35,321 bases of DNA from IMG/VR virus record IMGVR_UViG_648276647_000008, one strand, 5' to 3'. This document shows positions 12,742-33,530 of the stretch, in pieces. Each line of letters begins with the position of its first letter. Within the stretch, counting starts at the first letter, position 1. This DNA comes from a virus. Taxonomy: Duplodnaviria > Heunggongvirae > Uroviricota > Caudoviricetes. The notes beneath the pieces are model-generated. The model saw only the letters and a program-made list of their open reading frames with translations, was not told where the DNA came from and did no database searches. Both the position numbers and the translations under genes were made by a program.

Positions 12742-12758
12742 ATTGCTCTAATTATTTT
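12742..12758 (+). promoter_or_regulatory. C1-repressor-operator-like 17-mer (ATTGCTCTAATTATTTT)
   Basis: 15/17 match to the asymmetric P1 C1 operator consensus ATTGCTCTAATAAATTT as recalled; three more copies occur in the window. Confidence 0.5.
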
Positions 12759-12831
12759 ATTTTTTTAGCTTCATATGCTACATTAACTTGCTTGCGTGCT
12801 AATGCATTTTCGGTTTATCCTAAACAGGCAT

Positions 12832-12908
12832 CTTAGTAAAACGGATGCCGGGATTGGAACCCCGGATAATGCAAAAGGCGACATAGACGCCAAAAGCGTC
12901 TTTTTTTT
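12832..12908 (+). ncRNA. c4: Candidate c4-like antisense RNA (immI repressor RNA)
   Basis: Non-coding segment between promoter/operator and icd. Hairpin GCCGGG-ATTGGAA-CCCGG presents ATTGGAACC in its loop; a second hairpin GACGC-CAAAA-GCGTC is followed by T8 (intrinsic terminator). Complement GGTTCCAAC occurs ~13010 and a second ATTGGAACC copy at ~13045. Boundaries approximate. Confidence 0.4.
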
Positions 12909-13093
12909 GTGTCATGCCATCGCACAACCATACGTAGCACATAGCTCCGAGATCAATGGTAGTGCTGGCTGGGCTGCCGAAAGGCAGGCCGGTTCCCTTT
13001 TGCGCCGGTAGTTCCAACCCAGTCAGTGCTACCGCCATTGAGATTGGAACCTCACGCGGTAGCTCCTTAAATTAGCAAAAGGAGGCTGCCATT

Positions 13094-13315
13094 GTGGCTA
13101 CTATCCCTACCCCTACTCATCCTGAATTTATCTGGCGCTTTTACTCCTGCCAAAAACACCACTATCACTTCGTTATCGCAGCAACAGAAGACGAAGCACG
13201 CTCTCAATTGCCTGATGGCCCCTGCATTTTTACAGCCCGTTTTTCAACTAACTCGCGCAATTCACTTAGTTACTGGAGCCTCCCCTTCTCTGCCGACGTT
13301 CAGGGGGGTTTATGA
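13094..13315 (+). CDS. icd: Small protein overlapping the ant start (Icd-like cell-division inhibitor)
   Basis: 73-aa ORF with GTG start at 13094 and AAGGAGG RBS ~10 nt upstream; its stop overlaps the ant ATG. Size and position match P1 icd as recalled. Confidence 0.55.
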   Translation: MATIPTPTHPEFIWRFYSCQKHHYHFVIAATEDEARSQLPDGPCIFTARFSTNSRNSLSYWSLPFSADVQGGL

Positions 13316-29578: not shown

Positions 29579-29863
29579 ATGCAGATGGAGCTAATAAGCC
29601 GCAAGGAGTTCGATAGTCGGGTAACTAGCGGTGAACTCGACAACTTGCAGGCTATCAAGGTGAAAGAAGGCTTTTGCCTCATTGGGAATCAGAGCGGAAC
29701 AAATCGCGTTTTTATGCTTCGCCGTACGGATCTGAAGCCATTTGTCTGGAAGAACGAAATTGGTCCCAGCTCATACGCTCAAACGAGGGGGTGCCACAAC
29801 CTGGCCTTTTTCTACAAAGACGAGCTTTCTGTGGTTGATATTCAAGGGTTACAACATGTTTAA
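29579..29863 (+). CDS. Small protein upstream of the rdgC homolog (P1 uhr position)
   Basis: ATG at 29579 with AGGAG RBS at 7 nt; the track ORF starts further upstream without an RBS. 94 aa. Confidence 0.45.
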
Positions 29864-30761
29864 GCACTGGAAAAACATTACTATTTATAAACTTTCTCGT
29901 GAGGCGGATCTGACCGACTTAGAAGATAAAAAGAAAATGATCCTTTTCACGCCATGCGGTAGTCAGGATATGGCCAAGTTCGGTTTTGTATCGCCATTTG
30001 GTGATAATTCCGAAGTTATCGCTATGCATGGAAATGGTTTTATCCTTGTTGAAGCAAAGCGCGAAACAAAAATTCTTCCCCCGCCGGTTATCCAGCGAGC
30101 TATTCAAGAAAAAATTGAAAAACTTGAGCAAGAACAAGCGCGTAAACTGAAGAAAACAGAGAAGGACTCCCTGAAAGACGAAGTTCTACATTCTCTTCTG
30201 CCACGGGCTTTTTCAAAGTTTTCTGTTATCCAGGCGATCTACGACGGTTCAACTAAACGTATCTATATCAATGCCAGCGCGCGGCAGGCAGAGGATATGC
30301 TCGCGCTTATGCGTAAGTCTCTGGGGTCTCTTCCTGTTGTTCCCCTGAGTGTTGAAAATCCCATTGAATTAACGCTGACCGACTGGGTACGTGATGGTAG
30401 TGCTCCACAGGGATTTCAAATGGGGGATGCGGCAGAACTTAAGGCAGTGCTTGAGGATGGCGGTATTGCCCGAGTGAAAAAGCAGGATTTGGGAAGCGAT
30501 GAAATTTCCACACACTTGGAAGCAGGCAAGCTCGTCACTAAGTTGGCACTCGACTGGCAGAACCGCATTAAATTTACACTGGACCATAACTTCAGCCTTA
30601 CAAGCGTCAAATTTGCGGATGAATTGCTTGAGCAGAACTCTGATATTGATAGTGAAGATGTTGCGCAGCGACTGGACGCAGATTTCTTCCTGTTGACCAG
30701 TGAAATTTCGTGCCTGGTTGATGCTCTGGTAAATGCCCTTGGTGGAGAGGCTAAGCAGTGA
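29856..30761 (+). CDS. hrdC: Recombination-associated protein RdgC homolog
   Basis: ~301-aa product from the ATG at 29856. Near-colinear with E. coli RdgC as recalled ([11 protein letters not shown]..., [49 protein letters not shown]..., LGGEA). Confidence 0.8.
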
Positions 30762-33346
30762 AAGAGCTGTGCTATGGATCTGTTTGCAGTGGAATTGAAG
30801 CCGCGAGTATTGCCTGGGAACCGTTGGGTATGCGTCCGGCGTGGTTTGCTGAAATCGAGCCTTTTCCATCTGCCGTTCTTGCGCACCGCTGGCCCCATGT
30901 CGCCAACCTTGGCGACATGACAAAACTTGCCAAAAAAGTCCTGGCTGGGGAAATCGAATCCCCTGATGTGCTCGTCGGGGGAACACCTTGTCAGGCATTC
31001 AGTATCGCTGGATTACGTGGTGGGCTTGATGATGAGCGTGGCGCGCTAACTTTAAAGTATGTGGAGCTTGCAAATGCAATTGACGACAAACGGGCTGAGT
31101 CATTTCTCAAACCAGCCGTTATCGTCTGGGAAAATGTCCCAGGAGTCTTGTCATCGGCAGATAACGCCTTCGGATGTTTCCTTGCCGGATTGGCTGGAGA
31201 AGATGCGCCATTTGAACCAGGTGATCGACCTGAATCAGGAAAAAGTAACGCGTTCTGGCGGTGGGATGGTAAAACCGGTTGCCATGCTCCAAAGTGGCCG
31301 CAGTGTGGTTGTATTTATGGACCGCAGCGAAAGGTGGCCTGGAGAATCCTTGATGCCCAATACTTCGGAGTGGCACAACGACGCCGACGCGTGTTTGTTG
31401 TCGCAAGTGCTCGAACAGACCTCGATCCCGCAACGGTACTTTTTGAGTTCGAAGGCGTGCGCCGGGATATTGCGCCGAGCAGAGGCGAGGGGAAGGAAGT
31501 TGCCGGAAATGTTGGAAATGGCATTAAAAGCGGGAGCCATTGGGATAACCCTGTAAATCCGCACCCGACACTTAACCAGTCACACAATACTGGCGGGATC
31601 GGCGCAAGTAACCAGGAGATTTTTGCGCAGCGCGGAAGTGGGCTTGTTGGTGCTTATCGAATGGTTGCATTTGGCGAATATGCTGATGATGAGACTGCTT
31701 CTACTGTCAAGGCCAGAGATTTTAAAGATGCAACCGATTTAGCAGTTTTCAGTAGTACTGGTGCTGGTATTTGGCGTGAAGGTGCAGGCACTCTTCGTGC
31801 CAGAGCACAAGAAAGTCACGAACATCTGGCAGTGATGGCTATTCATGGAACACAAGATCCTGATGTTAATTGTGAATTGGCACATACTATTGGTCGTAAC
31901 CATGGTCAAGAAAATGCAGTCGTAGCTTTTTCCTGCAAAGATTATGGACAAGATGTTTCTATTGAATGTTCTCCGACTTTACGATCTGGTAATACTGTTA
32001 ATAGCAATCCAAATGCAGGATGCCCACCAGCTGTTGCGTATTCGCTACAACATGCACAAATTGGGCGAAAAGATGATGCTGGACCGCAGGGTAAAGGGTG
32101 GCAAAAAGAGATAAGTTTCACTCTTGATTCCCGCGCTACAGCTGACGCCGTTGCGTTATCTTTTGGGGGGCAGAAAAGTATTGAAAAAGGCGAATTAGGT
32201 GATAATGGTTACTTACCTCATATGATGAGTGTTCGCCGTCTTACCCCTGTCGAATGTGAAAGGCTGCAAGGTTTTCCTGATGGGCATACGTTGATCCCGA
32301 CGGAAAAGCGTAAAAAAGTTAATTCAGATGAACTGGCATATCTTCGCAATCACTATCCAGATTTAAGCGAAGAAGAGGCCGCGATGCTTGCAGCTGACGG
32401 ACCGCGTTACAAAGCGATCGGCAATAGTATGGCAATACCAGTAATGCGCTGGATTGGCGATCGGATTACTAAGGCCGTATGTCGGCAGAAAGAAGGAAGT
32501 GAAACAAAAGAGCGAAAAGTTAAACCAGCGGCAGAATTCGAACGGTCCATATTCAAATGGGCCGGTGGAAAATTTGGTGTTCTGGAACAAATCTTTCGCT
32601 ATTTGCCAGAAGGGAAGCGCCTGATTGAACCTTTCGTCGGTGGCGGAGCTGTCTTCATGAATGCCGGATACCAGGAAAATCTGCTAAATGATGTGAATGC
32701 TGACCTGATTAACTTTTACAAGACTCTGCAACGCGAGGAGCATTCACTTATCACTCTGGCACATCGTTTTTTCCTGGACTACAACACCCAGGAGGGATAC
32801 TTGGCAGTACGGAATGCGTTTAACAAACAAGTCTATGATGATTTACATCGCGCAGCGGCGTTTTTGTTCCTGAACCGACATTGTTTTAACGGATTGACGC
32901 GCTACAACCAGGCCGGTGAGTTCAATGTCGGTTATGGGAAGTATAAAACTCCGTATTTCCCATTACAGGAGATGGAAGCCTTCCTCGGTGCGGAAGGGCG
33001 GTCTGAGTTTGTATGCGGTGATTTTGCAGCAGTGATTGAAGCTGCCGGAGAAGGAGATGTCATCTTTTGCGATCCGCCGTATGAACCGCTCCCCAATACA
33101 GAGGGGTTCACGAACTATTCCGGTCATGACTTTAAGTTTGAAGAGCAAAAACGCCTGGTGTCTCTGTTGACGGATGCTCATCGCCGAGGTGCAAAGGTAC
33201 TCATTACTAACAGTGGCGCGCCAAACGTCAGAGAACTTTATCAGGACAGAGGCTTCAGAGTGGAACCTCTCTTTGCCAGACGTTCTGTGTCTTGTAAGGG
33301 AGACACTCGTGGTGTTGCTCATGACGTTATGGCTATATTGCTCTAA
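30758..33346 (+). CDS. dmt: Bifunctional DNA methyltransferase: N-terminal C5-cytosine MTase fused to C-terminal Dam-like N6-adenine MTase
   Basis: 862-aa ORF, GTG start overlapping the hrdC stop. C5-MTase motifs ([34 protein letters not shown]) then Dam motifs (FKWAGGK, DPPY). No adjacent restriction endonuclease gene. Confidence 0.85.
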
Positions 33347-33353
33347 TAAATTT
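33337..33353 (+). promoter_or_regulatory. Perfect C1-operator-like 17-mer (ATTGCTCTAATAAATTT) overlapping the dmt stop, within a 16-bp palindrome
   Basis: 17/17 match; CTAATAAATTTATTAG is a perfect palindrome, so a second, partly overlapping inverted half-site is present. Confidence 0.55.
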
Positions 33354-33530
33354 ATTAGTGTAATATCGCCTCAATGAATCGTGATTTATAGAGCGATTTA
33401 GCTGTTAGCCGCGACAGGCGCGGCGGCAAGTATGGCGGGGTAGTGACTCCTTCCCCCTCATGACGCCGAGTTGCCAGGTTGACCATACGCCTAAGTGGCA
33501 ACACCGAAGTGCGTTACGAGCTTCCAGTTT

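Follow-up and report, generated by a model that had tools for sequence, protein, structure and literature searches.

Putative operators of a P1-type C1 repressor ahead of four transcription units in a P1-like phage-plasmid

Phage P1 has a dispersed regulon of C1 operators that has been in the literature since 1987, and the C1 repressor binds each of its asymmetric 17-bp sites as a monomer. The regulon is reported to be fully annotated in the P1 genome of Lobocka et al. (2004). P1 carries 22 asymmetric 17-bp C1 operators, and their published consensus is ATTGCTCTAATAAATTT (PMC8546580).

The window studied here is the whole 35,321-nt stretch of IMGVR_UViG_648276647_000008, which sequence comparison identifies as a P1-like phage-plasmid with ~97% identity to P1 coordinates 37-70 kb. 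For operator comparison we used the annotated P1 GenBank record AF234172 with its “phage repressor C1” protein_bind features, which at positions homologous to the window comprise Oc4/Op51, OrepL/Op53, Odmt/Op68 and Obanab/Op72ab.

Operator-like sites in the window

A search for ATTGCTCTAATAAATTT with up to three mismatches returned five matches in the window. The first-pass annotation had listed four 17-bp plus-strand copies; all four match counts and three of the four coordinates hold, while the second copy lies 20 nt away from the position given for it, since the stretch at 14774-14790 reads TCTGGATCGAGTCAGAA and holds the -35 of PkilA, the kilA promoter. All four copies stand upstream of plus-strand units (c4-icd-ant, kilA-repL, uhr-hrdC-dmt and the ban-operon leader), as had been proposed, and the consensus given there for the P1 C1 operator is the same as that in PMC8546580. 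The fifth match, 33348-33364(-), is missing from that list and is the overlapping inverted partner of 33337-33353(+). The predicted operators are as follows:

12742-12758, plus strand: equivalent of Oc4/Op51, ATTGCTCTAATTATTTT, 15/17, 21.7 bits, ahead of a variant immI operon
14794-14810, plus strand: OrepL/Op53, TTTGCTCTAATAAATTT, 16/17, 20.5 bits (P1 annotation)
16558-16574, plus strand: remnant of Orlf/Op55, left 11 nt ATTGCTCTAAT kept, right 6 nt replaced (ATTGCTCTAATCTGGAG)
29491-29507, plus strand: Odmt/Op68, ATTGCTCTAATAAATAT, 16/17, 22.8 bits (P1 annotation, alignment)
33337-33353, plus strand: Obana/Op72a, 17/17, 24.9 bits, identical to P1 (P1 annotation)
33348-33364, minus strand: Obanb/Op72b, ATTACACTAATAAATTT, 15/17, 21.2 bits, identical to P1

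The scores come from a position weight matrix (PWM) built from 11 P1 operators, all of them outside the interval homologous to the window. On this independent scale the five strong sites reach 20.5-24.9 bits and the next best site in the window 13.5, the training operators themselves scoring 16.8-24.6 bits with the exception of Oc1b (8.0). In the operator consensus T8, A9 and A10 form an invariant core while C5, C7 and T11 are nearly invariant, and the CTAAT core is retained in all five sites. The exact 10-nt core TTGCTCTAAT occurs five times, always on the plus strand; the copy at 16559-16568, also overlooked in the first pass, lies in the Op55 remnant.

At three loci the P1 operators (Op53, Op68 and Op72a/b) are base-identical in the window, and C1 binding and lysogenic repression at these three are taken from the published P1 work that AF234172 summarises. 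We consider it about 95% probable, judging from sequence, that the repeats are operators of a P1-type C1 immunity repressor. The motif regulon is real and was correctly interpreted, but it is already known.

Promoters and transcription units behind the operators

The positions of PkilA, Pdmt, P1ban and P2ban were taken over from the P1 annotation; their overlap or adjacency with the operators carries over unchanged, while the -10 hexamer at the 12742 site, TACATT, is our prediction. The features of the first unit are:

12779-12784, plus strand: predicted P51a-like -10, TACATT (by analogy of position to P2c4/P1c4 in the P1 record)
12792-12821, plus strand: predicted P51b-like promoter, TTGCGT (12792-12797), 18-nt spacer, TATCCT (12816-12821) (positional analogy with P1 P2c4/P1c4)
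12828-14715, plus strand: controlled unit 1, immI leader through ant1 (Rfam, Pfam, C4 target repeats)
12828-12906, plus strand: immI leader, Rfam isrK match, 58.3 bits
12952-13039, plus strand: C4 antisense RNA, Rfam, 76.7 bits
13094-13315, plus strand: icd
13312-14715, plus strand: ant1, with Pfam ORF6N and ANT domains

The 12742 site lies where P1 has Oc4 and P7 has Op(c4), and a -10-like hexamer follows at an equal distance (+37/38); the site is a positional orthologue of Oc4 at the head of immI, although its upstream flank is non-homologous. The window has ATTGCTCTAATTATTTT where P1 has AATGCTCTAATAAATTT, a difference at three positions (2, 12 and 14), and a different immI leader and C4 RNA follow. 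The cassette behind the operator is of neither the P1 nor the P7 type, and the C4 target repeats a1/b1 and a2/b2 are located within the unit. Among 95%-identical cassettes the operator is unchanged and the adjoining 25 nt upstream are heavily substituted; in three unrelated upstream contexts homology starts at the operator each time, with a fixed offset of the -10 hexamer. We infer that the variant site would be bound by C1. The isrK match begins 7 nt past the second -10 (TATCCT). Of the two immI promoters of P1, presumably just the upstream one, P51a, responds to C1, P51b being constitutive; immI would then be under C1 only in part.

The remaining promoters and units are:

14776-14804, plus strand: PkilA/P53, -35 14776-14781 and -10 14799-14804, the latter overlapped by the operator at 14794-14810 (P1 annotation)
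14880-16288, plus strand: controlled unit 2, kilA 14880-15680 and repL 15710-16288 (ORF list, alignment to P1 repL)
29507-29536, plus strand: Pdmt, -35 TTGTTT 29507-29512 and -10 TACCAT 29531-29536, adjoining Op68
29579-33346, plus strand: controlled unit 3, uhr 29579-29863, hrdC 29856-30761 and dmt 30758-33346 (P1 coordinates transferred, ORFs)
33365-35321, plus strand: controlled unit 4, 5' part of the ban operon (P1 annotation, alignment, terminator scan, ARAGORN)
33530-33549, plus strand: terminator-like hairpin (terminator scan)
34022-34097, plus strand: tRNA-Asn (ARAGORN)
34100-34175, plus strand: tRNA-Thr (ARAGORN)
34597-34683, plus strand: tRNA-Ser (ARAGORN)

Around Op53, 95 of 97 nt are identical to P1 and the operator itself shows no differences; repL is shortened by a 1-nt deletion in the alignment with P1. 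Homology to P1, P7, JL22 and 813R1 stops at 16568, inside Op55, and because the break falls within the operator only its left 11 bases are left, scoring 6.5 bits versus 14.8 for P1 Op55. The rlfA-rlfB-pmgF module of P1 is replaced here by one containing hok/sok; Pfam, PHROGs and PADLOC scans assigned no function to the replaced accessory genes.

Op68 is identical to the annotated P1 Odmt, and the unit behind it encodes Pfam C5 and N6 methyltransferase domains. The methyltransferase operon would accordingly stand under C1 control, the textbook arrangement of P1, which agrees with the earlier proposal. The fourth site, previously taken for a single copy, does hold a 17/17 match but is the bivalent operator Op72ab: two inverted 17-bp sites with a 6-bp overlap and a total of 28 bp, of the Op72ab/Op99ab type and as a whole identical to P1 Obanab. 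Op72a overlaps the dmt stop codon, the P1ban -35 (33338-33343) and the P2ban -10 (33347-33352). The non-coding unit after dmt, which the first-pass annotation had placed under C1, would indeed be so controlled in the P1 manner, but it is the ban-operon leader. The P1 ban operon runs in the order dicF-like region, tRNAs, tciABC and ban; in the present DNA the ban gene falls past the end of the window. The leader has 95% identity to P1 over 33320-33620, an interval that includes the annotated dicF-like region of P1. Downstream of Op72ab, Rfam (E <= 1) returned tRNAs and noise but neither DicF-like RNA nor any other known sRNA; the “dicF-like region” label is therefore that of the P1 record. A simple promoter scan missed the annotated P1 promoters at Pban.

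No c1 gene was found in the window (best tblastn match, E = 3.2); in P1 it lies ~25 kb past the point equivalent to the window end. This is why the cognate repressor has to be deduced from relatives. The immI variant of the window recurs, at 99.5% identity, in plasmid pFORC64.1, which also has the remaining P1 operator set and encodes a C1 that matches P1 C1.100 at 283 of 284 positions; this suggests that the repressor of this phage is P1-like.

Each site overlaps or adjoins a sigma-70 promoter, and C1 in a lysogen would therefore keep RNA polymerase from four promoter regions: the upstream immI promoter, which drives c4-icd-ant; PkilA/P53, which serves kilA-repL and lytic replication; Pdmt, ahead of uhr-hrdC-dmt; and, via the bivalent Op72ab, both ban promoters. 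In P1, the co-repressor Lxc/Bof strengthens C1 binding, and the antirepressors Coi and Ant1/2 take C1 away, so that the entire dispersed regulon is derepressed at induction.

Alternative origins of the repeats

The motif is AT-rich, and about 50 look-alikes above 6 bits occur per shuffled window, so chance matches in AT-rich intergenic DNA have to be considered. For the five strong sites such an origin has next to no probability and is ruled out by both kinds of shuffling: dinucleotide shuffles average 0.19 matches with up to three mismatches and none of 100 attains five, while the mean best PWM score of shuffled windows is 13.8 bits and the single highest score in 200 shuffles, 20.6 bits, is about equal to the weakest of the five. 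The base identity of three loci with P1 operators also speaks against it. Two weaker variants named in the first pass fare differently, chance being the best explanation for both. The minus-strand variant placed at ~17683-17698 corresponds to 17681-17697(-), AATGTTCTAATAAACTA, whose 13.5 bits are at the level of the mean shuffle maximum; we rejected it as an operator, as it has T at the near-invariant C5 and no P1 annotation. Relatives of this region are 97-100% identical throughout, and conservation is for that reason uninformative. A 210-aa accessory gene might, though improbably, be placed under C1 by this weak site; no promoter turned up ahead of it in the simple promoter scan. The variant at ~29431 is 29424-29440(+), TTTGCTCTAAGTTTTGT, with 7.1 bits, well within the range of the shuffle look-alikes; it too was discarded, its P1 homologue TTTGCTCTGATTTTCGT breaking the invariant A9 and being unannotated in P1. 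A further candidate, 23282-23298(-), was rejected at a chance-level 13.1 bits; its location is the intergenic interval between gene 23 and parB, where P1 has parS.

The repeats might instead be a shared promoter element, a -35/-10 module for RNA polymerase, a phage sigma factor or an activator, given that TTGCTC, a part of the motif, is the annotated P1ban -35 and TCTAAT the annotated PkilA -10. We regard this as very improbable, for no two sites place the motif alike relative to the promoter: at kilA it overlaps the -10, at ban the -35, while the dmt and c4 copies stand upstream of the -35 and share only 1-3 nt with it. Moreover, P1 has copies in both orientations and also some that are remote from promoters, and the P1 record annotates every such site as C1-binding. 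A different proposal is that the 17-mers persist mainly as homology patches for cassette exchange among P1-like phage-plasmids, the repressor role being secondary at some sites such as the Op55 remnant. It draws on the P1/P7 homology that stops inside Op55 at 16568, on the homology to immI-type cassettes after pacB in other plasmids that starts at the operator, and on the sharp divergence that ceases at the left operator edge at 12742 and 29491. However, such a pattern would also arise if constraint in each transcription unit simply began with the operator and promoter bases, the case rests on a handful of junctions, and it is compatible with C1 binding; we find it unlikely. That C1 operators double as preferred joints for cassette exchange in P1-like phage-plasmids is similarly doubtful. 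Three observations fit such joints: Op55 is cut at base 11 where the hok/sok-containing module replaces rlfA-rlfB-pmgF, the exchangeable immI cassette starts exactly at the operator in two genome locations, and the sharp divergence ceases at the left operator edges at 12742 and 29491.

The operators in comparison with P1, P7 and IncY plasmids

Reading the repeats as C1 operators is important mainly for annotation: the motif re-discovers the known P1 C1 operator regulon, marks the immunity-controlled early promoters and identifies the unit after dmt as the ban operon. The likeness to P1 (AF234172) extends to the genome positions, the asymmetric 17-bp consensus, the downstream operons and the operator overlap with PkilA, Pdmt and P1ban/P2ban, and P7 has its own Op(c4) annotated at the same place as the 12742 site.

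Immunity in P1 and P7 is tripartite, comprising immC (c1), immI (c4-icd-ant) and immT (lxc). As in these phages, a C1 operator precedes the C4 antisense RNA, one transcript gives rise both to C4, by processing, and to its targets icd and ant, and the target sites of C4 occur in duplicate, a1/b1 and a2/b2. The immI-like region of phage D6 has no C1 operator above 9 bits in the PWM scan, and D6 was therefore dropped as a comparator. The analysis found more than 1000 P1-like plasmids. In IncY P1-like plasmids such as pZ1323SSL0055-3, pEC12-3 and p6CP1-IncY-mcr-3.5, immI-type cassettes lie directly after pacB rather than in the classical immI position. Their leader, C4 and icd are 87-91% identical to those of the window, and they also begin with a C1 operator, (C/T)TTGCTCTAATAAATTG, which differs at 3-4 positions and has the same operator-to-promoter geometry.

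The C4 recognition elements are TTGGAAC and GCAAAAGG in the window versus TTGACAG and GTTAGTGA in P1, and P7 C4 also departs from that of P1 in the equivalent loops. These distinct elements point to a further, third C4 specificity of immI. The phage thus appears to keep P1-type immC control, with a different immI (C4) specificity and with Op55 lost.

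C1 operators shared with P1

By megablast against phage records, the window belongs to a P1-like phage-plasmid (Punavirus) and matches P1 AF234172 collinearly, with ~97% identity, between ~37 and 70 kb. Its gene order runs from sit/tail genes through the immI region (the c4-icd-ant immunity operon), kilA-repL, baseplate/sheath/capsid genes, par, repA/oriR and uhr-hrdC-dmt to the start of the ban operon; this backbone is common to more than 1000 enterobacterial plasmids, none of them identical to the window. A search with the 17-bp consensus ATTGCTCTAATAAATTT, allowing up to three mismatches, gave five matches, and the exact 10-nt core TTGCTCTAAT occurs in five copies, all on the plus strand. 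In the P1 GenBank record, protein_bind features named "phage repressor C1" lie at places homologous to the window sites, and the P1-annotated hexamers of PkilA, Pdmt, P1ban and P2ban carry over without change.

Motif sites with the P1 operators at homologous places, and promoters transferred from P1
12742-12758, plus strand, 15/17; P1 Oc4 (formerly Op51), before c4-icd-ant
14794-14810, plus strand, 16/17; P1 OrepL (Op53), overlapping the -10 of PkilA/P53
16559-16568, plus strand, core copy, a remnant; P1 Orlf (Op55), immediately after repL
29491-29507, plus strand, 16/17; P1 Odmt (Op68), abutting the -35 of Pdmt
33337-33353, plus strand, 17/17; P1 Obanab (Op72ab), divalent, overlapping P1ban and P2ban
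33348-33364, minus strand, 15/17, inverted partner overlapping the 33337-33353 copy
PkilA: -35 14776-14781, -10 14799-14804
Pdmt: -35 29507-29512, -10 29531-29536
P1ban: -35 33338-33343, -10 33361-33366
P2ban: -35 33321-33326, -10 33347-33352

The first-pass annotation had read four plus-strand copies at operon starts as a C1-type repressor regulon, and this C1-operator interpretation is right: besides the protein_bind annotation, Op53 (95/97 nt identical in context), Op68 and Op72ab (33337-33364) are identical in P1, whose 22 dispersed asymmetric 17-bp C1 operators have the same consensus (PMC8546580). The motif observation is likewise real, with these exceptions: a coordinate was misplaced, a partner site and a remnant were missed, and the two weak sites lack support. 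The copies at 12742, 29491 and 33337 were recovered by the mismatch search, the one placed at 14774-14790 is 20 nt off and reads TCTGGATCGAGTCAGAA, and the inverted partner and the core copy were absent from the list.

A position-weight-matrix scan, suggested with that annotation, was run on both strands using a log-odds matrix from 11 P1 C1 operators annotated outside the window-homologous interval (O26, Oppp, OpmgRa/b, OpmgT, Olpa and Oc1a-e), the consensus of which is exactly ATTGCTCTAATAAATTT. The five sites scored 24.9, 22.8, 21.7, 21.2 and 20.5 bits, inside the range of the training operators and above the next-best matches on the minus strand at 17681-17697 (13.5 bits) and 23282-23298 (13.1 bits). 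Chance matching is excluded for these five sites, since none of 100 dinucleotide shuffles reached five matches (mean 0.19 at up to three mismatches) and the mean best score in 200 composition-preserving shuffles, with ~50 sites above 6 bits, was 13.8 bits. That the motif is a shared promoter element is unlikely, as its placement relative to the -35/-10 hexamers differs at every site. The operators may also act as cassette joints, which would fit the breakpoints seen at 16568, 12742 and 29491; such a role would not conflict with C1 binding.

The two weaker variants proposed earlier (~17683-17698 on the minus strand and ~29431) are indistinguishable from chance because they reach 13.5 and 7.1 bits against the mean shuffle best of 13.8. 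The 29424 site was rejected as an operator: its P1 homologue TTTGCTCTGATTTTCGT breaks the invariant A9 and carries no operator annotation. The 17681 site was rejected too, having T at position 5 where 16/17 operators have C; its carriers are 97-100% identical over the whole stretch, so its conservation is uninformative.

The ban-operon leader and the Op55 remnant

The unit after dmt, initially described as non-coding and preceded by a C1 operator, does have that operator upstream and is, by the P1 record, the leader of the ban operon. Positions 33320-33620 are 95% identical to P1, cover the P1-annotated dicF-like region and include a terminator-like hairpin (33530-33549); tRNA genes follow, and ban itself lies past the window end. 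After tRNA-Asn and tRNA-Thr, the leader carries a tRNA-Ser (anticodon TGA) at 34597-34683, which the P1 reference lacks at the equivalent position; the annotation of phage D6 includes tRNAs for Ser, Thr and Asn. With 862 aa, the dmt ORF (30758-33346) is longer than its 754-aa P1 counterpart by ~108 aa, which fall between its C5 and N6 methyltransferase domains. Just before Op68, sharp local divergence from close relatives ends at the operator's left edge: roughly one nucleotide in two of the 40 at 29451-29490 departs from P1, compared with ~1% downstream.

At the Op55 position, 16558-16574 reads ATTGCTCTAATCTGGAG. Homology to P1, P7, JL22 and 813R1 stops at 16568, after the operator's eleventh base, and the P1 rlfA-rlfB-pmgF module is exchanged over 16569-17800, with the left joint inside the operator.

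Features at the exchanged module
16524-16850, small ORF, phrog_3772
16863-17037, hok/sok-type locus (Rfam sok, 86 bits)
17033-17665, minus strand, 210-aa gene, phrog_7522

The 210-aa gene has no Pfam or PADLOC match, and the PHROGs scan gave no function for it. With 6.5 bits against 14.8 for P1 Op55, the remnant is probably inactive or very weak. The repL gene (15710-16288) lacks one nucleotide that P1 has near 16229/16230, which leaves a truncated frame of 192 aa against 281 aa. It may be a pseudogene or a truncation that is tolerated, or the deletion may be a sequencing error; RepL is annotated as split in phage vB_EcoM-673R5 too.

The site at 12742 and the variant immI

The 12742 site is the sole strong one that is not a plain P1 copy, and from ~10.5 to 13.1 kb the window has no match to P1 or P7. 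The P1 superimmunity genes simABC are replaced by three minus-strand ORFs (10637-12595; 355, 158 and 116 aa), all matching PHROGs families without assigned function, the 355-aa one with a weak C-terminal SH3_3 match.

RNA features of immI (Rfam)
12828-12906, isrK
12952-13039, C4 antisense RNA

The immI leader and C4 RNA differ in type from P1. The recognition elements are TTGGAAC and GCAAAAGG, with duplicated targets at 12854/12871 (inside the isrK match) and 13044/13075, whereas those of P1 are TTGACAG and GTTAGTGA; P7 C4 differs from P1 in the corresponding loops. Since the C4/target arrangement is the same but the elements are not, the architecture is P1-like with a different specificity. 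The ant1 ORF (13312-14715) has ORF6N and ANT domains and, at 467 aa, is longer than the 347-aa P1 version.

The operator ATTGCTCTAATTATTTT occupies the same place as P1 Oc4 and P7 Op(c4), and the -10-like hexamer, TACATT in the window and TATCTT in P1 and P7, lies equally far from the start of the operator in all three. In several IncY P1-like plasmids, a cassette with 87-91% identity immediately follows the stop codon of pacB (terminase), and homology to the window begins there at the C1 operator [C/T]TTGCTCTAATAAATTG in the same geometry. In plasmids whose cassette sits at the classical position and is 95% identical, about a dozen substitutions cluster in the 25-30 nt directly upstream, the 17-mer being invariant. 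Good comparative evidence thus points to 12742-12758 as a predicted functional Op51 equivalent. The substitution cluster (12715-12741) stops at the operator's left edge. In the IncY plasmids (L004-L008, locus position ~330-480), the post-pacB cassette comprises a C1 operator, a leader, a C4-like RNA, an icd-like gene and a KilAC antirepressor; P1 holds c1 in that place, and RCS47 and JL22 have a post-pacB copy plus the classical immI.

Repressor and comparison with P1

In P1, each asymmetric site is bound by a C1 monomer, which blocks the sigma-70 promoter that the site overlaps or adjoins; at the bivalent Op72ab, two molecules shut both ban promoters. Lxc strengthens C1 binding, and Coi and Ant1/Ant2 release C1. 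In P1 immI, C1 control is known only for the upstream promoter P51a, P51b being described as constitutive; it is plausible that the window has counterparts of both.

No C1-like ORF was found within the 35-kb window, as expected from the position of c1 at 93 kb in P1. The evidence for a P1-type C1 in this element is strong but indirect, because plasmid pFORC64.1, with the same immI variant (99.5% identical), encodes a C1 equal to P1 C1.100 at 283/284 positions and has the other P1 operators in their normal positions. The operator system is a feature already known in P1, and the immI of the window suggests that C1 control of the P1 type is paired here with a third immunity specificity.
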